Source: a virus
IMG/VR virus record: IMGVR_UViG_3300045256_000188
Coordinates: 1-64,000 of that record
DNA: 64,000 nt
Strand: one strand, 5' to 3'
The notes beneath the pieces were generated by a model. That model saw nothing but the letters and a program-made list of their open reading frames with translations. It was not told the DNA's origin and searched no databases. Of this stretch, positions 13,355 to 22,214 are shown piece after piece. How positions within the stretch are numbered: position 1 is the first letter of the stretch; every line of letters begins with the position of its first letter. A program made the translations under genes and the position numbers.

Positions 13355-15148
13355 TCAGCGACTTCTGGATGGCGTGCCTGACAGTGGCCTGGCGGCGCTT
13401 TGGTATCGCCTCTCTAGCACAAACCTCAATTTTCCCGTCCCAAAAACCTTCTTGTAGCCGAACTTGTCGGCATAGGCTGCTTCTTTCATCGACATTTTCA
13501 CGGCGCGCTCGTAGAGCGTCTTTTTGTGCATCACCCAGCCGTGCTCGTCTACGTACCAGTAATCTGGGCGAATTACCTTGTCCTGCTTGAAATTGAGCGC
13601 TTTGTAGACCGCCCCGTCGTGATTGAATGTAGTGTCACAGTACGAGATGACAAACTTGTACTTCTTATCTAACTGCTTCAGGCACCTACTAACGAACCAG
13701 CTGGCGAAATTGTGCTTCTGATACCGTGGATGGATACACAGCCGACTCAATTCGACAGTCTCAGCCAATGTGAACTCGCCAGTGTCTACGTTCTGGCGCA
13801 CCGGAGGCGAAAAAACGCATACCGCGATGAGCTTATCTTCTAGATATGCCCCGTGGGCTATGCCGCCGCGTCCGGCGTTAGCCAAGTAGTGATACTTGGA
13901 CAACAACAACCTATAATCTACGGCGTCAGCTTTCCTGATTACAATGTCCTTGAAGGAGAACGATGCTATTTCCAACTCCGTTAGCCCAAGCCAATATTTC
14001 AAAGTCTCGACTACTTTCTCTTTGCAACCGAACTCGTGCTCCCACAGGTATTTCAGTTCGTGGCTACCGCCGCAATACCTGGCCACGTACATCGCTTTGG
14101 CCTTATCCACACGCACAGCTCGCGCCAGGGAATGCCAATAATCGCCTTGGCACTCAATCACCAATAATGGCTTGTTGGCCCGTGGGATTACACAGTCGAA
14201 ATTATATGGACCGATGGTGCACTCCGGATCAGCCGCCCTGTCGGCGTACTCCCGGAAGTATCGTATCCCCAGATCGTCCAGAATACTGTAAAGAGTCGTC
14301 TGTAGGCCGGAGACGCGCGGCTGTGCTTCCCGTGCTTTCGCCATACGTTCTCGGAATTCGTCACTCTCCCAAACTTTCCTAATCCTCTCTGCATTAGCTT
14401 CTCGCAATCCTGGGTCTGACCATACAATCTTCATCAGGTTTGAGATCTTCTGTCTCTTGAGCGGATCGGCCCATATCCTCTGCTGGATAGCCGACATCTC
14501 TGCTTTCTTCTCATCGGTCCATACTAAAACCTGGACCGCTCGCATAGCTTCGACGCGTTCGGGGCTGTCCCAGTAATCCCGGAGAATGTCGGCCATTTTC
14601 TCACGGAGCGTAATATCAGACCACACAATCTTCTGAATAGTCGCTTGTTTGCGGCGGTACTCCGGCTGAGCCCAGAGGTCCTTCGAGCCCTCGGACAGCT
14701 TCCGTCGGAGTTCCGGCGTTACCCGCGCCTCCGATGACGCAGCAGCAGCGCTCCGCTTATCGTCCGTCCACGCTTTCTTCATGCGTTCCGATTGAAGAGC
14801 CGCAAAGTCCTCTGGGCCACTTATGCCGTGCTTTTTGCAGAGACGCTCCAAGGCTGATACTGAACCGCCGACAACTGCGACGATCTCTTGCAATGACTTG
14901 GTAGGACGGAGTTGCCTGACCTGTTCTATGGTCTCTGGAGTATCTAGGTTCGATTTGTTGCATAAGGCTGCGGTCTCAGCCACACTCCGTTTCAGCCCCA
15001 AGTGCACCAGTAGCTTTCCTATGGTCCTAGCTGGCTTCCTGTAAATTGCCCCAATCTCCTTAGCAGTTTTCCCTTCCGAAAATAGCCTAATAATATCCTG
15101 CTTCTGGGTGTCACTGAACTGCTGATGAACTGAGATAGGCGCTGGCAT
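13355..15148 (-). CDS. HTH + Trp-repeat + Vsr/DUF559-like endonuclease fused to Mom-like GNAT domain (Hef-like architecture)
   Basis: Two HTHs; ~8 W-containing repeats; YNFDC..VIECQGDYWH..DKAK..YLWEHE; YHYL..ELSRLC..SWFVSRCL..ISYCD..HDGAVYKALNF; start set at ATG behind GGAAAGGA. Confidence 0.75.
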   Translation of the reverse strand: MPAPISVHQQFSDTQKQDIIRLFSEGKTAKEIGAIYRKPARTIGKLLVHLGLKRSVAETAALCNKSNLDTPETIEQVRQLRPTKSLQEIVAVVGGSVSALERLCKKHGISGPEDFAALQSERMKKAWTDDKRSAAAASSEARVTPELRRKLSEGSKDLWAQPEYRRKQATIQKIVWSDITLREKMADILRDYWDSPERVEAMRAVQVLVWTDEKKAEMSAIQQRIWADPLKRQKISNLMKIVWSDPGLREANAERIRKVWESDEFRERMAKAREAQPRVSGLQTTLYSILDDLGIRYFREYADRAADPECTIGPYNFDCVIPRANKPLLVIECQGDYWHSLARAVRVDKAKAMYVARYCGGSHELKYLWEHEFGCKEKVVETLKYWLGLTELEIASFSFKDIVIRKADAVDYRLLLSKYHYLANAGRGGIAHGAYLEDKLIAVCVFSPPVRQNVDTGEFTLAETVELSRLCIHPRYQKHNFASWFVSRCLKQLDKKYKFVISYCDTTFNHDGAVYKALNFKQDKVIRPDYWYVDEHGWVMHKKTLYERAVKMSMKEAAYADKFGYKKVFGTGKLRFVLERRYQSAARPLSGTPSRSR

Positions 15149-15177
15149 GGTATATCCTTTCCACGTCCAATACATTT

Positions 15178-15220
15178 GACGCGCCCCAGAAAGAAACAAT
15201 AGTCTTTCCGGGACGCGTCA
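15178..15220 (-). terminator. Hairpin following the capsid 3'-end remnant
   Basis: tgacgcg.cc.gaaaga...tctttccgggacgcgtca inverted repeat. Confidence 0.45.
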
Positions 15221-15233
15221 GCATGAGACTGTT

Positions 15234-15298
15234 TTAGAGGTTGCTGACAGTGATTACGCTGTCAGGTCCAGCACGGTCGGCGTGCTGAGCAGCGGGAC
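15234..15298 (-). pseudogene. Remnant second copy of the major capsid gene 3' end
   Basis: Reads VPLLSTPTVLD, then after a deletion VITVSNL*; the capsid ends IPLLSTPTVLD...VVTVSNL*. Confidence 0.85.
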
Positions 15299-15321: not shown

Positions 15322-17034
15322 TTATCTTCCAGCACAAATTTCCACAAACCACTCATTCGGTGCTTTGTGTCGGGCGCGGCTCACTAAAGGTAGCGCATTG
15401 ATGATAAAATCAGCAGTCAAAGCATTCTTCATCGGTTTGTCCACGTGCAGTACAACCCGCTTCGCATGAGTTTTCGCCTTTTGAACTAGAGGACGCAAAA
15501 ACTCAGCATACCAAGTCTCAAACTTCCCATACTCAACCCCATCCAAATAATCCTCCTTGTTGTGGAAAGGCGGAGATGTAAGCACGAAATCCACATCGGA
15601 CCATATCACATCTTGCCATTTCAAGTTGTGAAGCTGGCAAGAAGAACCCACAAATTCTTTGATCTTCACTAGGCCAGGATAGGAAATACCAGGATCGGTA
15701 GCCTCATAATCGCAACCCGCAATTTTCGCAGCTAAAAGTCGATGCCCCCAACCAGCACAAGGGTCGAACCATTTCCCTTGAAGCCCAAAATGTTTGAGCG
15801 CAGCAATAATCACCGGGACACTCAACATGGAGGCCATGGTCAAACCAGCAAACCGCAGTTCTCGAATTAGACGGGCTGGACTTAAAGTCTTCCCAGGGGT
15901 AATGAATGCTTTGACCGCTCGTGCTACCGTCTTCGGAGCCTTAGCAAGTTCAGCTACAGAGACACCACCCTGACGGACGTGATAAGCAAGTGGTTGGTGA
16001 TGTAAGACTAGCTGATTCCCAGGAGCCAATCCTGTAGTAATTTGATTTTCACCAAGATACTGACCAATATCGATCGATTGACAAGCTAACCAATCACTAT
16101 CGCAATCGAATTTCTTTGATTGCCAACCACTACTGATGATAGTAGACACAAATTCGTTGATAATATCATGCCTGTCGGTCCTTGCCATAATCTCTGCTGC
16201 GGTCAACTTAAATTCGAAATCGTGGATATTGTTCCAAACGAAAGGTCGCAGACCTTGAAATTCGAGCCAGCGAGTGTATTTCCGTTCCAACCGAACCGAA
16301 TTATCGGAGTAGATAAAATTCCCAAACTTCGCGACATTGCCGCGATTGGCCCAGCGAAGCTCGTAAACCGATTTTCGCGGCTTCACTTGTGTAAATGGCC
16401 CACCAACCGCCGCAATACGACAATTGATCTTATTCAGCGCCCCATCGAATTTGCAGACAATATTACTGTACCATCGACGTTTACGACGGTGTTTCCTCTT
16501 CTGGCTACTGATGCACCCATCTCCGTCAAAATAGCCGCGAACAAAATGATGCAAAAGAAAGTCCGGCACTGTGTTGATTATTTCGAAGTTGATGCCATTT
16601 TTATAATCGAGCCAACCTAATTGCAGGAGAATCCTGGTCATTATCACATCATTGAATACCATCACCTTCCTAGGATGATTGTCTCTCAGATCGTCAAAGA
16701 ACTCACCTTTATAACCCAAGAAATCGGCCAACAATCGCAGATGCCCTTCATCCCGCTTCTGTAAAGAAACCCTGATAGTGCGGTATGTGCCCGCTGATTT
16801 GGCGATGCAACCATCGGCCAACATGAAACCTAACCAGTAAGCTTTTTCCGGAACATCAATCGTATCGAAAATGTGACTGTTAAGAACGAATGAACGCTCA
16901 CCTTTTGACTGACCTTTCAACCCAGCTTTTTTCATATATCGACGAACGGTAGTAACACTACAGTTTAACCGCTCAGCGATAGTTTTCTGTGGAATCTTCT
17001 GACGAGCCAATTTAATGATGTCGTCGGATAGCAT
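15322..17034 (-). CDS. HTH + LAGLIDADG endonuclease fused to a DNA methyltransferase-like domain
   Basis: HTH QKTIAERLNCSVTTVRRY; AYWLGFMLADG and HFVRGYFDGDG; FDPCAGWGHR (SAM binding) and LTSPPF (amino-MTase motif IV); visibly AT-richer than flanks. Confidence 0.8.
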   Translation of the reverse strand: MLSDDIIKLARQKIPQKTIAERLNCSVTTVRRYMKKAGLKGQSKGERSFVLNSHIFDTIDVPEKAYWLGFMLADGCIAKSAGTYRTIRVSLQKRDEGHLRLLADFLGYKGEFFDDLRDNHPRKVMVFNDVIMTRILLQLGWLDYKNGINFEIINTVPDFLLHHFVRGYFDGDGCISSQKRKHRRKRRWYSNIVCKFDGALNKINCRIAAVGGPFTQVKPRKSVYELRWANRGNVAKFGNFIYSDNSVRLERKYTRWLEFQGLRPFVWNNIHDFEFKLTAAEIMARTDRHDIINEFVSTIISSGWQSKKFDCDSDWLACQSIDIGQYLGENQITTGLAPGNQLVLHHQPLAYHVRQGGVSVAELAKAPKTVARAVKAFITPGKTLSPARLIRELRFAGLTMASMLSVPVIIAALKHFGLQGKWFDPCAGWGHRLLAAKIAGCDYEATDPGISYPGLVKIKEFVGSSCQLHNLKWQDVIWSDVDFVLTSPPFHNKEDYLDGVEYGKFETWYAEFLRPLVQKAKTHAKRVVLHVDKPMKNALTADFIINALPLVSRARHKAPNEWFVEICAGR

Positions 17035-17036
17035 CT

Positions 17037-17108
17037 TTAGTCCGTAAAAGTGTTCAGCACCGTTTAAATACGTTTGATTCGGCAACCATGAACACTTTTA
17101 CGGACTAA
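17037..17108. promoter_or_regulatory. Perfect 20-bp inverted repeat around a 32-bp promoter-like spacer
   Basis: ttagtccgtaaaagtgttca (17037-17056) / tgaacacttttacggactaa (17089-17108). Confidence 0.7.
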
Positions 17109-17152: not shown

Positions 17153-17180
17153 ACAAGAGGGGCCGTCAGGCCCCTCTTGT
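17153..17180 (-). terminator. Terminator of the major capsid gene
   Basis: acaagaggggcc-gtca-ggcccctcttgt 12-bp stem followed by TGTATTT on the minus strand. Confidence 0.75.
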
Positions 17181-17198: not shown

Positions 17199-18845
17199 TT
17201 ACAGGTTGCTGACTGTTACCACGCCATAGTACAGACCACCATCTTCGATCAGCTTCTTCCCATAGCGGGTCATAATACCCTTGTTCGGCGTGAAGGAGTT
17301 CGGGTCGAGTACGGTAGGAGTACTCAGGAGGGGGATATAGGGAGCATAGAAGTAGCCCGCGTCGAGCACCGAGTTCCCCTTGAAGCCCATCAGAATCTTG
17401 CAGTTCGGGAACAGCGGGTCCTTGTAGATCTTCATCTTGCCCTGGATCGAGCCGATGTTCATGATCCCGATGTCCACGCCCTCGGTGGTGAAGGCGTCGG
17501 AGGCACGGAAGTCGTTCAACTGCTCGAACTTGGACGCGATGTCCGCCGACATCACCATCCAGTTGGCCGGGCCGCGGAGGGTGGTCCGGTGGATGATGTT
17601 CGCCACTTCCAGGACCTTGTACATCAGGGCGATGTTGCGGTCCGTGAAGTTGACGCTCGCCCCGGCAGCGGTGGCGAAGTTGTGGTCGGCTCGGATCGCC
17701 GCAGCGATGATGAGGTCGTTGATGATCTCACGATCGATCTCGGCCACCATCTCGTCGGCCATCAGGTCGGTCAGGGTGGACTCAGCGTCGATGTTGTGCA
17801 CCGACTTGAGGTCCTGAGCGGCTTCCAGCGACCAGGAGGTCTTCAGCTTGCGGGTGATCGCAGCGACCGAATCACTGTCGATGCTCAGGGTCACTTCCGG
17901 CTGGAAGGGGTTGGCTTCCAGGTCGTACTCGTAGTTGACGCGGGCCACGGCCCCGACCGGGAAGGACCCAGCGGACAGGGTGACCTGGACGGCACCGGTC
18001 GAGTGGTTGAAGGTAGTCGCACCGGGAGTGCTGACGTCCACCGTCAGGGTGTCGGTGAACTCGGTGCAGTCGCCGACCAACACGACGTCAGGGTTGCCGT
18101 CGCTGTCGAAGCTCACCCGGAGGCACGGCGTGGCGTCGTCGCAGTTCGGGCTGGCGTCGGCGGCGGAGGCGAAAACCTCGACCACGACGGTGCCGGCCAG
18201 GACCGGACGGTGAGCCAGGGTCGCGGACACCACCGAGTTACCGGTGATCGTCGCGTCCTCGCCCCGGACTTCCTGCGAGGAGTAGTATGGGTCGAGAGCC
18301 CAGCCGTTCTGACGAGCGAAGCTCTGGGCGGTGTTCTGCCGCATGATCTGCGTGCCGGCGACCGTCTGGCCCTTCGTCAGAGCGTAGCGGTACCGGATGT
18401 AGAAGATCAGGCTGGCCGGCTGGCTCATCGGCTGGACGCCGACGAGGTTGTCCGCGATCAGCTTCGGGTACGACTTCCGGATCAGCGGCAGGGCGAACCG
18501 GGTGAAGTCGGCGATGTTCGCGGTGGTGGTCTGGTCTTCGAACAGCAGCGACCGCTTCTCCGGGTTCCAGGCGTTGAACTGGTTCTCCAGGATGGAGGCC
18601 ATCAGCCCGAACTTTTGGGGGCCGACTTCGCGGCACTTACTCAGAACCGGCGACCACTTGCGGACGAGTTGGTTCTTCTTCGACTCATGGATGACGGCGG
18701 CCTTGTGCAGGTCCGTCTCCTCGGTCAGCATACGACTGCCACGATTGACCCCTTCAGCGAGGTGCCGGCGAGCAGCGGGGGCAGCGGCCCGTGCTGCGGG
18801 AGCAGCCGGACGAGCAGCGAACCGTTGCGTGCGAGAAGGAAGCAT
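17199..18845 (-). CDS. Major capsid protein, T4 gp23-like
   Basis: KWSPVL, LPLIRK.YPKLIA..LVGVQPM..PA.LIFY, TRKLKTSWSLEAAQDL, EIDREII, GYFYAPYIPL, KGIMTRYG. Confidence 0.95.
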   Translation of the reverse strand: MLPSRTQRFAARPAAPAARAAAPAARRHLAEGVNRGSRMLTEETDLHKAAVIHESKKNQLVRKWSPVLSKCREVGPQKFGLMASILENQFNAWNPEKRSLLFEDQTTTANIADFTRFALPLIRKSYPKLIADNLVGVQPMSQPASLIFYIRYRYALTKGQTVAGTQIMRQNTAQSFARQNGWALDPYYSSQEVRGEDATITGNSVVSATLAHRPVLAGTVVVEVFASAADASPNCDDATPCLRVSFDSDGNPDVVLVGDCTEFTDTLTVDVSTPGATTFNHSTGAVQVTLSAGSFPVGAVARVNYEYDLEANPFQPEVTLSIDSDSVAAITRKLKTSWSLEAAQDLKSVHNIDAESTLTDLMADEMVAEIDREIINDLIIAAAIRADHNFATAAGASVNFTDRNIALMYKVLEVANIIHRTTLRGPANWMVMSADIASKFEQLNDFRASDAFTTEGVDIGIMNIGSIQGKMKIYKDPLFPNCKILMGFKGNSVLDAGYFYAPYIPLLSTPTVLDPNSFTPNKGIMTRYGKKLIEDGGLYYGVVTVSNL

Positions 18846-20258: not shown

Positions 20259-22214
20259 TTAGCTCCGACGAGATGGCAGCCGGACGGGAACAGTCACCTT
20301 CTTGCGGTCCAACCCGAAATAGCCGTTGATCTCCTTGACGAGAAGGTCGTTGTAGACATCCTCGCTGAAGAGCTTCTTCTGCTGAACGATTGGCTTGATC
20401 CGCCGGTTAAGTCCTTCCTGAATGTTCAGGATGGCCCCATGCACCGACGGCTCCGCCACCACATCCCAGGTCACGAAAGTGTAACCCGGCATGACCCGGT
20501 AGACGTCCCGACCCTTGTGCTCCATCACTTCCATGTCGCCCACGCCGCGGGACGAGATACCGACGCGAACCTTGTGCTCGAACAGACCACGAAGCATCGC
20601 CCCACATGGCAGCTTGTGGAGCACTTCGGCTTCGCCATACACCTTCTTCCCCTCCAACCACACCTTGGTCATCAGGTGGGACAGGCGGTCGAGGTGAATC
20701 TTGGCATCGGAGTTACCGGTCCAGAATGAACAACCACCGGTTTCCATATAGAAATTGCCGTGGTCCACCGAAACGCAATAAATCCGACCGGTATGGTGGA
20801 TCTTCTCGATGATAGTAAACCGCGGATCTAGACAAACCGATCGCGTCCGCGACACATGAAGCTGATGAAGGGTCCGCTTGTCAACAGCCCGAATGGCTCG
20901 GCCGGCGAACATATAATCATTGCTCGGCTCAACCTTCGACAGCCGGCCGGCACCACCAACTTTGACCAAGCACTCATGCAGGTCCCGAATCAGTCGTTCG
21001 GACACGCTGGACACAGCCAGCCTGCTGTACACCCCTAAATCGAGTTTCTGGACCACAGCGGCGTCAGTCTTGACACTTAGCGAGCGGGAATGACGATCCT
21101 CGGCCCGTAGCATCCGACCGTCGCCAATCGCGAAAGAGTAGATCAGAGCTTCAAGACAATCATCCGACAACGACTTGATATCTTCGGGAATGAATTTATC
21201 GGCAACGCCACCTAGACGGCGTAGCCAATTCGCCAGCCGTGCATCGTTCGTGAGGAACCCGCGTTTGCAGGGGGTCCACTGCAGTTCATTTGACACCCCA
21301 TCTAGAATTTCAGACACCAATTTGCGACCATGTGGCGTCTTTTGAGCAATACAAACCCCATTACGACCATTCAGATTGCCCTTGGATAGATAAAGACCCA
21401 ACAACAGACAGAATTGCCTTGCGTCCATTACCAGAGGGTTGACGAGATGTGGCTTCTTGAGTTTAAAGGCGTAGGCAGCTTCTACACCAGGGATAGTGTA
21501 CAAAGATGACTGTGCCACTTTCCTACTAGCGGTCTTTGGGATGCGATAATGAGCGTAGCGTTTCCGGTTTAAGTATACGTCCTCGATGGTGGCGTAGATC
21601 TGGTGGCCGTGGCGGTCCTCCAGAAGCAGTCGATGTCCCGGCGTATACGAATCGCTGATGTTGGCGTTATGAATCCTATATGCAGGACCATCGTACGGCT
21701 CGTCGATTATCGCGTTGACCCGCGATTCCACGAACGAACCGGCGACCCGCGACCAAATCCGGTCACCCACCCGAACTTCTCGGAACTCCTTCCATCCGGA
21801 GGTGGTCATCAAACGGAAGTTTGTATCCAATCGGCAAGGGTGGTCAAATTCACCGGGGACAGCACGAGCCGCCACATCCTCCTGGATATTGCGGACCGCA
21901 GGGATCAGCACATCCTGAGTGCCGTAGAACCGGCCGTTGGCGTTCTCGACGTCACCGTTCTGGATCAGCCCGCTGATCTTCATGATCGGCTCTTCCCGGC
22001 CACCGACCCCCTCGCAGATGGACTGCTTGATGTCCATCACTTCGAATGGGAAAGTGTCCCGGATTAGCTGCATCCCAGCGGGAATGACGCCAGTCTCGGC
22101 GATCAACGCACGGTTGATCACACCCGACTGGAGCCGGGTGTTCTTGTCTTCGGAGAGAACGCCCTGGCGAACTAGGCCGGGGCTGATTCCCATTACGCGA
22201 CGGCTAGGTAACAT
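20259..22214 (-). CDS. Prohead maturation protease, T4 gp21-like, with one intein
   Basis: NANGRFY, GEFDHP|intein|SDAKIHL..SH, VGISSRGVG, WDVVAEPSVHGA. Confidence 0.9.
   Translation of the reverse strand: MLPSRRVMGISPGLVRQGVLSEDKNTRLQSGVINRALIAETGVIPAGMQLIRDTFPFEVMDIKQSICEGVGGREEPIMKISGLIQNGDVENANGRFYGTQDVLIPAVRNIQEDVAARAVPGEFDHPCRLDTNFRLMTTSGWKEFREVRVGDRIWSRVAGSFVESRVNAIIDEPYDGPAYRIHNANISDSYTPGHRLLLEDRHGHQIYATIEDVYLNRKRYAHYRIPKTASRKVAQSSLYTIPGVEAAYAFKLKKPHLVNPLVMDARQFCLLLGLYLSKGNLNGRNGVCIAQKTPHGRKLVSEILDGVSNELQWTPCKRGFLTNDARLANWLRRLGGVADKFIPEDIKSLSDDCLEALIYSFAIGDGRMLRAEDRHSRSLSVKTDAAVVQKLDLGVYSRLAVSSVSERLIRDLHECLVKVGGAGRLSKVEPSNDYMFAGRAIRAVDKRTLHQLHVSRTRSVCLDPRFTIIEKIHHTGRIYCVSVDHGNFYMETGGCSFWTGNSDAKIHLDRLSHLMTKVWLEGKKVYGEAEVLHKLPCGAMLRGLFEHKVRVGISSRGVGDMEVMEHKGRDVYRVMPGYTFVTWDVVAEPSVHGAILNIQEGLNRRIKPIVQQKKLFSEDVYNDLLVKEINGYFGLDRKKVTVPVRLPSRRS
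20712..21836 (-). mobile_element. Intein (LAGLIDADG) in the prohead protease
   Basis: CRLDTNF...TPGHR...IYCVSV..GNF..WTGN|S. Confidence 0.9.

Follow-up and report, generated by a model that had tools for sequence, protein, structure and literature searches.

A predicted LAGLIDADG homing nuclease fused to an amino-methyltransferase module behind the capsid gene of a jumbo phage

Described systems and the window's fusion gene

Phages related to T4 carry free-standing endonuclease genes of the Seg and Mob types (GIY-YIG or HNH), which are wedged between conserved genes and are patchily distributed among relatives. For instance, segD of T4 lies between genes 23 and 24, according to a table in PMC2988022. 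In the ShiLan element, an HNH homing endonuclease lies within a phage DNA methylase gene; according to PMC11855218, the insertion is out of frame and interrupts the methylase. Nucleases are also joined to methyltransferases in Type IIG/IIC enzymes such as MmeI and BpuSI. These have an N-terminal PD-(D/E)XK nuclease, an amino-methyltransferase with motif I before motif IV, and a C-terminal target-recognition domain, all in one polypeptide. They recognize short sites, cut unmodified DNA while sparing modified DNA, and are cellular defence genes. Finally, there are phage proteins that combine a helix-turn-helix (HTH) with a LAGLIDADG nuclease and end after the nuclease. They belong to PHROG 4645 and are annotated as "endonuclease" or "mobile intron protein" (examples are ORF036 of Bacillus phage 0305phi8-36 and g328 of Yersinia phage phiR1-37).

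We analyzed a 64,000-nucleotide stretch of viral DNA (positions 1 to 64,000 of IMG/VR record IMGVR_UViG_3300045256_000188), which we call the window. Its source is a jumbo phage that has not been cultivated and whose head genes are of the T4 type. One of its genes encodes, in a single chain, an HTH, a monomeric two-motif LAGLIDADG nuclease, and an amino-methyltransferase module (Table 1).

Like the Seg and Mob genes, the fusion gene is wedged between conserved genes and is patchy among relatives, and like segD (as placed in the table of PMC2988022) it occupies the slot directly behind the major capsid gene. It is likely to spread by "intronless homing". Unlike Seg and Mob, it has the LAGLIDADG fold and a fused methyltransferase, and in the window its insertion took the place of the capsid gene's 3' end, of which a remnant is left. 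Unlike the HTH-LAGLIDADG proteins of other phages, the window protein continues into a methyltransferase, and its gene is outside any intron or intein. In the ShiLan element, too, one gene locus houses both a homing endonuclease and a DNA methylase of a phage, but the window's arrangement differs: the two domains share a reading frame and are conserved together as a single protein, and it is the gene as a whole that is mobile.

Like MmeI and BpuSI, the window protein has an N-terminal nuclease and an amino-methyltransferase in one polypeptide, with motif I before motif IV, and we propose below that it follows the same logic of cutting unmodified and sparing modified DNA. We nevertheless rejected its classification as a Type IIG/IIC enzyme: the nuclease is LAGLIDADG, not PD-(D/E)XK, and no target-recognition domain lies behind the methyltransferase, which is followed by nothing at all. 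Also, its nuclease is of a type with long sites, and the gene is a mobile phage element. In the literature that we searched (most subscription journals and supplements were outside the search), we did not find a LAGLIDADG-methyltransferase or nuclease-Mom fusion described.

Table 1. Features at the capsid slot of the window
Feature	Coordinates	Strand	Details
HTH repeats + Vsr/PD-(D/E)XK-like nuclease + Mom (neighbouring fusion)	13355..15199	-	Pfam; PHROG 1384, 559, 3339
Displaced remnant of the capsid gene's 3' end	15237..15298	-	"VPLLSTPTVLD", internal deletion and frameshift, then "VITVSNL*"
HTH-LAGLIDADG-methyltransferase fusion gene	15322..17034	-	ATG start, 570 aa; Pfam, PHROG, and homologue matches
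Methyltransferase module (helical subdomain + Rossmann fold)	15325..16227	-	aa 270-570; PHROG 12517
Methyltransferase motif IV, TSPPF	15565..15579	-	aa 486-490; catalytic, amino-methyltransferase type
Methyltransferase motif I, FDPCAGWG	15745..15768	-	aa 423-430; SAM binding
Double-motif LAGLIDADG nuclease domain	16249..16857	-	aa 60-262; PHROG 4645, AF2 model, Foldseek
LAGLIDADG motif 2, VRGYFDGDG	16516..16542	-	catalytic Asp172
LAGLIDADG motif 1, LGFMLADG	16810..16833	-	catalytic Asp74
N-terminal HTH	16927..17034	-	aa 1-36; HTH_11 26 bits, HTH_7 25.4 bits
Strong terminator hairpin	17153..17180	-	12-bp stem; between the capsid gene and the fusion gene
Major capsid protein gene (gp23 type)	17199..18845	-	Pfam Gp23, E = 1.2e-78

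The fusion protein and its family

The sequence-only reading had described one ORF with an HTH, two LAGLIDADG motifs, and the methyltransferase motifs FDPCAGWG and TSPPF, and all of these motifs are in place. Its interpretation, that a homing-type LAGLIDADG nuclease and a methyltransferase domain form one chain, agrees with the domain searches, the predicted folds, and the homologues. The ORF list also gives an alternative start, a TTG at 17085, which would lengthen the protein to 587 aa (15322..17085); the homologues begin where the first ATG (17034) does. The domain search that had been proposed gave matches to PHROG 4645, LAGLIDADG_3, HTH_11, and HTH_7. Both HTH scores are above their Pfam cut-offs, and the HTH region has three helices in the AF2 model. 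Both halves of the protein were modelled confidently (pLDDT 92.7-95.8).

In the nuclease half, PHROG 4645 ("endonuclease") matches aa 20-272 of the 587-aa form (E = 2.9e-43). The LAGLIDADG_3 score of 28.6 bits is above the Pfam cut-off of 22.5, and LAGLIDADG_1, at 21.5 bits, is slightly under its cut-off of 23.1. Judged by its secondary structure, the AF2 model contains two alpha-beta-beta-alpha-beta-beta-alpha units, which would form the DNA saddle. The best Foldseek matches were to I-AniI (1p8k/3eh8), I-LtrI, I-HjeMI (3uvf), and I-OnuI, with E values from 5e-08 to 3e-06; for I-AniI, E was 4.8e-08 and TM was 0.59-0.61 (normalised to I-AniI). The window protein shares with these monomeric double-motif enzymes the fold and the two motifs with one catalytic Asp each. 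A single-sequence search of the PDB with the fusion protein returned HTH noise only, and a profile search returned weak matches to LAGLIDADG proteins and to the methyltransferase motifs.

We also considered an intein-borne nuclease and rejected it: the HTH is at the ORF's first residues, with nothing before it, and the methyltransferase half is one complete domain rather than a split extein. The fusion protein has no match to Pfam's intein families at E <= 0.1.

The C-terminal module was modelled as a confident Rossmann fold (pLDDT 95.8, pTM 0.92); the sequence-only reading had held that the lack of a SAM-binding fold would count against it. The protein ends about 80 aa past motif IV, with the last Rossmann strands. 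Along with this fold, the module shares a glycine-rich SAM loop, an SPPF catalytic loop past strand 4, and an acidic residue past strand 2 (ATD) with the (D/N/S)PP(Y/F) amino-methyltransferases. Foldseek matched it to METTL16, Trm11, and HsdM, and VIA-align aligned it with Trm11 (Z = 15.7, rmsd 3.0, 172 residues) and TrmN (Z = 15.6, rmsd 2.4, 163 residues). In the PDB profile search, the region matched by motif IV was at the start of chain 2zie, and that matched by motif I was at the end of chain 8s9m.

The module's kinship to amino-methyltransferases is with N6_N4_Mtase (PF01555) by sequence and with Trm11, TrmN, and METTL5 by structure. The window protein itself has no match to PF01555 (cut-off 26.7 bits) at E <= 0.1. 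Among the members of its family, 11/41 match weakly at E <= 1 (the best is 4.3e-4). At E <= 0.001, 32 of 50 extended relatives of the module match N6_N4_Mtase, and more distant members are above the cut-off (for example, P0156 with 44.5 bits and P0158 with 37.3 bits). Unlike the PF01555 enzymes, the module has its own helical N-terminal subdomain, forms its own family (PHROG 12517, listed as "unknown function"), and scores below the Pfam cut-off; its motif order is also the reverse of that in PF01555. These similarities suggest that the module is distantly related to N6/N4 DNA methyltransferases, and DNA is the predicted substrate. However, the nearest solved structures are RNA m2G/m6A enzymes (Trm11, TrmN, METTL5, and METTL16), so the fold alone does not indicate a DNA substrate.

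We found 47 full-length homologues of the fusion protein, at 29-53% identity. The homologues are fused proteins and not gene pairs, contrary to what would have undermined the sequence-only reading. For alignments A1 and A2, seven of the 47 were omitted to thin the set (P0009, P0011, P0013, P0016, P0020, P0023, and P0027). The two halves are similarly diverged (mean identity 37% and 39%), and they diverge in step (r = 0.74, a value reached by 0 of 999 permutations). Across the 41 rows of the alignment, the catalytic Asp is conserved in 40 at motif 1 and in 39 at motif 2, so that three members have lost one. DPCAGWG is exact in 38 rows and TSPP[FY] is present in all but one (40/41). A search of the phage collection for near-identical DNA found nothing. 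In a protein search of INPHARED, the halves were matched separately, and none of the 50 matching records reached 80% query cover.

The methyltransferase module is found in other contexts as well. We examined the best 150 of 639 representatives: 24 are attached to this type of LAGLIDADG, 50 have another large extension, and 76 stand alone, with no large partner. The partners identified in the group of 50 are LAGLIDADG_2 (18 cases), Endonuclease_7 (2), TnsA-like (2), HNH_3 (1), and zf-His_Me_endon (1). Scanning contigs with two of the stand-alone modules (P0128 and P0126) found no locus.

Insertion and turnover behind the capsid gene

In all nine loci that we found through the fusion protein, the fusion gene is directly behind the capsid gene. 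In the window, its GC content is 45.5%, versus 62.8% for the capsid gene. The closest relative of the window's capsid protein (92.7% amino acid identity, locus L082) lacks the fusion gene.

Directly past the fusion gene lies a displaced piece of the capsid gene, a remnant of its 3' end. It is identical to the capsid gene of L082 at 39 of 41 nucleotides (tblastn is further evidence), and its local alignment score was 53, as compared to a maximum of 39 among 60 shuffles. A second locus (L003, with identical sequence in L006, L152, and L153) has a capsid remnant at the same place. Only these 2 of the 13 carriers examined have one; the other eleven entries scored at the level of shuffled sequence.

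The foreign GC content, the patchy presence, and the displaced remnant are typical traces of an active mobile nuclease. We conclude that the fusion gene is a predicted free-standing, mobile homing-endonuclease gene that inserted at the capsid gene's 3' end, and that the capsid gene is probably both the target and the host gene of the insertion.

The 3' region of the capsid gene at the start of the remnant is a candidate nuclease target. We compared the capsid codons around IPLLSTPTVLD across all loci, grouped by their downstream content, and saw no pattern that separates carriers from non-carriers, although this is a weak test because the site is approximate. The absence of a consistent junction difference leaves room for immunity based on modification. 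We also looked for co-conversion by computing sliding identity between the window's capsid gene and those of L082 and nine others, and found no sharp drop at the 3' end.

To survey the slot, we took 80 capsid-related loci and dropped 12 with less than 1.2 kb downstream (L083, L105, L106, L108, L115, L133, L139, L144, L146, L147, L155, and L158). In the remaining 68, the slot holds a methyltransferase-module gene in 24, a Mom gene in 8, and neither in 36; several loci are one phage in different samples, so these counts are not independent events. Across the related loci that we examined, 39 of the 43 module ORFs are extended at the N terminus by 189 aa or more, and we did not see a nuclease gene and a methyltransferase gene split into a pair.

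The partners vary. The methyltransferase module is joined to LAGLIDADG, TnsA-like, or endonuclease VII/HNH nucleases, and Mom is joined to LAGLIDADG or Vsr-like nucleases. This amounts to four or more nuclease folds and two modifier folds, unrelated among themselves and joined in a constant order. The window itself carries two such fusions in tandem: next to the methyltransferase fusion is a Mom fusion (Pfam Mom, E = 3.8e-17; MTES_1575, E = 0.0016) whose likely start is the ATG at 15148. As judged from their predicted domains, the nuclease-modifier fusions at this slot are combinatorial, and they would compete for the position.

What the methyltransferase may do

The sequence-only reading had offered self-protection, anti-restriction cargo, and phage-phage competition as possible functions. 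We tentatively favour the idea that the methyltransferase confers immunity on the carrier's genome against its own nuclease, although we would give it a little less than an even chance. During a mixed infection, the nuclease would cut the 3' region of the capsid gene, close to the codons for IPLLSTPT, in relatives without the element, and the element would be copied in during repair. The HTH-LAGLIDADG part would hold the methyltransferase on the same DNA, and the methyltransferase would modify a base within or near the nuclease's site. The carrier's packaged DNA, being already methylated, would be spared, and the unmethylated DNA of rivals would be cut. The result would be a one-protein module that cuts the rival and marks itself, akin to a single-chain restriction-modification enzyme riding on a homing element. 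Immunity of this kind could let the element target invariant codons of an essential capsid gene without a resistant allele. Target methylation inhibits I-CreI-derived meganucleases (PMC3827243), so methylation can block this class of enzyme.

Some observations count against self-immunity. About half of the examined representatives of the module lack a large partner, so the module can work without a tethering nuclease. Also, the loss of a catalytic Asp in three family members, as compared to the near-constant TSPP[FY], hints that the methyltransferase is useful on its own. Both observations fit a different explanation, in which the methyltransferase is anti-restriction cargo of the homing gene: it would act in trans on a short motif across the genome and shield it from host restriction, much like the orphan methyltransferases of phages or like Mom. 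The fusion would merely keep the cargo and the selfish nuclease together, so that selection at the level of the phage retains the element. In phage Mu, Mom (the slot's other nuclease-fused modifier) provides a broad anti-restriction modification. According to PMC7468147, the two gene types that vary most often in phage metagenomic islands are orphan methyltransferases and homing endonucleases. But for cargo, adjacency would suffice, and yet nearly all of the slot's module ORFs are fused and no nuclease gene with its modifier in a gene of its own behind it was seen there. The joining of so many unrelated folds in one order also speaks against cargo, and we consider it somewhat less likely than self-immunity.

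Another idea is that the HTH-LAGLIDADG part is a recognition module for a long site, and that the protein marks or regulates that site (for instance, near the capsid gene) without cutting it. Degenerate LAGLIDADG domains serve in DNA recognition in WhiA-type regulators, and one source gives the name "WhiA" to family member P0044. The methyltransferase module itself lacks a large domain for target recognition, and the pTM of the full-length model (0.78) points to domains that are held in a rather fixed arrangement. However, a binding scaffold would not need the catalytic Asp residues, which are almost always conserved, and the traces of an active mobile nuclease described above do not fit. We view this idea as improbable. 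Least probable of all, and by our estimate very much so, is that the methyltransferase modifies RNA or protein and that the nuclease is attached to it for reasons other than DNA protection or through an accidental gene fusion. The best structural matches are indeed to tRNA/rRNA m2G and m6A methyltransferases and to PrmC, but the sequence affinity is to N6_N4_Mtase, the domains repeatedly joined to it are DNA nucleases and DNA-binding HTHs, and Mom, a DNA modifier with another fold, takes the module's place in parallel fusions.

Returning to self-immunity, we speculate that these fusions constitute a new class of mobile element, the "homing restriction-modification" module, although we are doubtful that so broad a claim will hold. 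In such modules, the modifier (the methyltransferase, or Mom next door) would provide epigenetic immunity to its own long-site nuclease. The modules would also be weapons against co-infecting relatives, and they would have been built repeatedly, from at least four nuclease and two modifier folds. Homing endonucleases and restriction-modification systems are usually seen as separate kinds of selfish nucleases, and a natural protein with both a long-site homing nuclease and a DNA modifier would connect them. Several such fusions have arisen at a single hotspot behind the capsid gene, from nucleases of unrelated kinds and from modifiers that are likewise unrelated. If modification protects the carrier, this would explain how a homing gene that is free-standing can target a sequence indispensable to the genome that carries it, and the displaced capsid remnant offers a concrete candidate for the target. 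The fusions would also provide natural pairs of meganuclease and methyltransferase as tools, perhaps matched for one site. For the phages themselves, self-immunity of this kind, if true, would add a mechanism of phage-against-phage competition.

Architecture and conservation of the fusion protein

The sequence-only reading described 15322–17034 as a single ORF encoding an HTH, two LAGLIDADG motifs, and methyltransferase motifs, and every one of these was recovered from the window's DNA. The ORF is on the minus strand and spans 15322..17085 (587 amino acids from a TTG). Because homologs begin at the first ATG, at 17034, the proposed start is right, and the protein has 570 amino acids. Domain searches agree for the N-terminal part, which matches HTH families and LAGLIDADG_3 in Pfam (28.6 bits versus a cut-off of 22.5), as well as PHROG 4645, annotated as "endonuclease" (amino acids 20–272 of the 587-aa form, E = 2.9e-43). 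The last 300 residues of the window's protein did not match any Pfam family; this methyltransferase module (amino acids 270–570) corresponds to PHROG 12517, "unknown function".

Features of the fusion gene and its surroundings
Feature	Position	Strand	Remarks
Scaffold-like gene and prohead protease gene	upstream of the fusion gene	(-)	same strand as the fusion gene
Major capsid gene, gp23-type	17199–18845, upstream of the fusion gene	(-)	Pfam Gp23, E = 1.2e-78
Fusion gene	15322–17034	(-)	
HTH	aa 1–36		fusion protein, 570-aa form; read from DNA
LGFMLADG, LAGLIDADG motif 1	aa 68–75		as above
VRGYFDGDG, LAGLIDADG motif 2	aa 165–173		as above
FDPCAGWG, methyltransferase motif I	aa 423–430		as above
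TSPPF, methyltransferase motif IV	aa 486–490		as above
Capsid remnant piece 1, VPLLSTPTVLD	15298–15266	(-)	
Capsid remnant piece 2, VITVSNL(stop)	15257–15234	(-)	
Second fusion	13355–15199, likely start 15148	(-)	directly downstream of the fusion gene

A word-indexed search scored 8000 candidates, of which 494 had E ≤ 0.001, and the best 120 of these 494 were listed. At least 47 proteins (P0002–P0048, 545–630 amino acids) span at least 90% of the query, at 29–53% identity. We aligned the window's protein with 40 of these 47, and used HMMs from the two halves of this alignment to sort the 120 listed matches: 59 contain both halves, and 61 contain the nuclease half only. According to precomputed Pfam assignments, 4 of the 61 listed proteins with the nuclease half only have a Mom domain and 3 have a C5 methylase (PF00145).

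Within the 41-row alignment, the catalytic aspartate is kept in 40/41 proteins for LAGLIDADG motif 1 and in 39/41 for motif 2. DPCAGWG is exact in 38/41, and TSPP[FY] is present in 40/41. Divergence is equal in the two halves (37% and 39% mean pairwise identity), and their distances are correlated (r = 0.74, reached by 0/999 label permutations). Together with the conserved motifs, this indicates that the fusion protein evolves as a single unit, with constraint on both predicted active sites.

Both structure models were built on 41-row alignments. In the full-length model (pLDDT 92.7, pTM 0.78), three helices at the N-terminus are followed by a linker and then by two alpha-beta-beta-alpha-beta-beta-alpha units. 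Foldseek matched this model best to I-AniI (1p8k, 3eh8), I-LtrI, I-HjeMI, the bI3 maturase, and the I-OnuI group. The C-terminal domain had been called methyltransferase-like, and in the model of amino acids 270–570, predicted from the alignment of 40 homologs (pLDDT 95.8, pTM 0.92), it is a predicted class I Rossmann methyltransferase with a helical subdomain in front.

Insertion behind the capsid gene

CheckV rates the 83-kb virus record as 23% complete, which makes a jumbo phage probable. Its nearest cultured capsid relatives are jumbo phages of Stenotrophomonas and Xanthomonas (31–33% identity). The capsid gene is followed by a terminator with a 12-bp stem and then by the fusion gene, which is foreign in composition: its GC content is 45.5%, whereas the capsid gene has 62.8% and the window as a whole 56.8%.

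All nine of the viral-contig loci that were found via the fusion protein (8 distinct sequences) have the fusion gene directly after the capsid gene. At these loci, the capsid proteins are 67–86% identical to the window's, but the fusion proteins are just 34–50% identical. A search based on the capsid protein recovered 80 loci; in 68 of them, the downstream sequence is at least 1.2 kb long. Some of these 68 are the same phage from different samples, so these counts are not events: 24/68 encode the methyltransferase module no more than about 1.1 kb behind the capsid gene, 8/68 have a Mom-domain ORF, and 36/68 have neither. The 36 include L082, the closest relative (capsid 92.7% identical).

The interval that separates the fusion gene's stop (15322) from the next gene contains a stretch of capsid-gene 3' end, broken into two pieces that are in different frames, with ~27 codons missing between them. 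The remnant is nearly identical to the capsid gene of L082 (39/41 nucleotides), while the window's intact capsid gene differs from L082 at 8/33 corresponding bases. This indicates that the remnant is the old resident 3' end, displaced by an incoming cassette that brought a new 3' end for the capsid gene together with the terminator and the fusion gene. To judge from where the remnant starts, the break and join may have fallen close to the strongly conserved codons for IPLLST, which are thereby a candidate target. In L003, whose sequence is shared by L006, L152, and L153, GLYYGVVTV from the capsid C-terminus lies ~145 nt after the fusion gene. The remnants score 53 in the window and 51 in L003, versus null maxima of 39 and 37 (60 shuffles); no remnant scored above the shuffle null in the other 11 carrier entries. 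Weak tests found no clear co-conversion tract in the capsid gene, and no sequence signature in the junction region that sets carriers apart from non-carriers.

The second fusion has HTH repeats, a Vsr/PD-(D/E)XK-like nuclease (MTES_1575, E = 0.0016), and Mom (PF25680, E = 3.8e-17); the window thus carries two different nuclease-modifier fusions in tandem. Its homologs are right behind the capsid gene in L081, L088, L102, L107, and L124. A gap of ~86 nt separates the remnant's stop from the second fusion's likely ATG (15148); in L081 and L088, the homolog starts 58–97 nt after an intact capsid gene. This spacing fits an ancestor with the capsid gene followed by the Mom fusion, with the LAGLIDADG-methyltransferase cassette invading later.

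Several other arrangements were also noted. L002 (7986–11919; the same contig as L111) has two nuclease-methyltransferase genes in tandem behind the capsid gene, encoding a 563-aa LAGLIDADG-methyltransferase and then a 735-aa protein that has the same methyltransferase module behind 414 N-terminal amino acids without assignment. Six loci (L119–L121 and L135–L137) have a lone 168-aa ORF ~800–1330 nt after the capsid gene; it shares ~41% identity with a portion of the Mom-fusion protein in the window, and may represent either a fragment of this type of element or one of its domains on its own. A diverged second capsid-like C-terminal segment lies ~5–6 kb downstream of the capsid gene in L095, L096 (+5814), and L154 (+5195), and is probably a vertex-protein paralog, not a remnant. 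The capsid gene of one carrier (L007, 6317–7811) is split into two overlapping ORFs (303 and 207 amino acids), which may be due to a frameshift or an assembly error. In Bacillus phage SP-15 (KT624200.1 / NC_031245.1, 25512–27954), the capsid gene is annotated as two pieces, and the capsid match overlies a "putative endonuclease", another nuclease gene at a gp23-type capsid gene. Finally, the window's prohead protease ORF (20259–22214, minus strand; 651 amino acids) has a Peptidase_S77 match that is confined to amino acids 514–595. It contains ~376 extra in-frame codons (~20710–21838) where the L082 homolog is contiguous. The insert begins with CRLDT, has two LAGLIDADG-like motifs, ends with FWTGN ahead of a serine, and is probably an intein with a homing endonuclease.

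Other combinations of nucleases and modifiers

We scanned examples from behind the capsid gene with Pfam and PHROGs.

Nuclease-modifier combinations behind the capsid gene
N-terminal part	Modifier	Examples
HTH + LAGLIDADG	methyltransferase	window fusion gene; L111, L150, L152, L156, and others
HTH/NUMOD + TnsA-like nuclease	methyltransferase	L089, L100; L103 by length and module model only
Zinc ribbon + endonuclease VII/HNH	methyltransferase	L084, L141; L085–L087, L140, L142 by module model only
HTH repeats + region without assignment (Pfam, PHROGs)	methyltransferase	L128, L138, L149, L157
HTH + LAGLIDADG	Mom	L127
HTH repeats + PD-(D/E)XK-like	Mom	L125 by scan; L081 by BLASTP only; window 13355–15199

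A full HMMER search with the module against 1.84 billion representatives gave 639 hits with E ≤ 0.001, and we examined the best 150 of these 639. The module is joined to this type of LAGLIDADG in 24 of the 150; 47 have another N-terminal extension of at least 150 amino acids, 3 have a C-terminal extension, and 76 have no large extension (some of these may be fragments). Among the 50 extended relatives from the same best 150, Pfam identified LAGLIDADG_2 in 18, Endonuclease_7 in 2, a TnsA-like domain in 2, HNH_3 and the zinc loop of His-Me homing endonucleases in 1 each, and zf-CGNR in 3. Across the 160 loci, a sample that is biased by how the loci were found, 39/43 module-bearing ORFs have 189 or more additional amino acids at the N-terminus, and a nuclease gene with a methyltransferase gene of its own behind it was not seen.

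Substrate and proposed function

VIA-align of the model of amino acids 270–570 against 48,161 chains gave Trm11 (Z 15.7, rmsd 3.0, 172 aligned) and TrmN (Z 15.6, rmsd 2.4, 163 aligned), and then Trm14, METTL5, RsmC, and PrmC; Foldseek matches were METTL16, Trm11, TrmN, and a Type I HsdM. These enzymes methylate exocyclic or amide nitrogens via a (D/N/S)PP(Y/F) loop. Because most of the top structural matches act on RNA, the fold does not name the substrate. These matches would favor a substrate other than DNA, but the module's sequence affinities are with DNA enzymes, and we consider such a substrate very improbable. The family profile has weak matches to motif IV of a Thermus modification methylase and to motif I of a DNA cytosine-N4 methyltransferase. 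N6_N4_Mtase (Pfam) is matched weakly by 11/41 family members, at E ≤ 1, and by 32/50 of the more distant relatives with large extensions at E ≤ 0.001. Motif I precedes motif IV in the fusion; the order is reversed in the Pfam family. SPPF with serine is typical of N4-cytosine methyltransferases.

We class the fusion gene as a free-standing homing endonuclease gene, which is a known kind, with a fused DNA-type modifier. Our literature search, with most subscription journals beyond its reach, did not find any paper describing a fusion of LAGLIDADG with a methyltransferase or of a nuclease with Mom. Among the nearest papers, one reports an HNH endonuclease concealed out of frame within the methylase gene of a phage (PMC11855218), and a survey lists, as separate entries, orphan methyltransferases and homing endonucleases as the two most variable types of phage genes (PMC7468147). 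Free-standing homing endonucleases of T4-type phages spread in mixed infections: in a genome without them they cut a conserved gene nearby, and repair then copies them in. In T4, segD sits between genes 23 and 24 (PMC2988022). By analogy, our element would home in the same way, with the capsid gene as its target. What we have directly is the architecture, predicted folds, intact catalytic motifs, foreign composition, patchy presence at a hotspot, and the displaced remnant.

Why would such an element carry a modifier? The methyltransferase could act genome-wide against host restriction, as Mom does, and give the phage a reason to retain a selfish element. The module is often found on its own, and a few members that have lost a nuclease aspartate keep methyltransferase motifs, both of which would fit such cargo; we regard this as possible but rather doubtful. 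That the protein is a targeted methyltransferase that does not cut seems less likely, indeed improbable. We tentatively suggest, at somewhat under even chances, that the methyltransferase makes the carrier genome immune to its own nuclease. The HTH-LAGLIDADG part would keep the methyltransferase at the target, where methylation in the major groove would block the nuclease; meganucleases derived from I-CreI are reported to be inhibited by methylation of their target (PMC3827243). Self-immunity would explain why the modifier is fused and not merely adjacent, and why unrelated nucleases and unrelated modifiers have repeatedly been joined in the same order.
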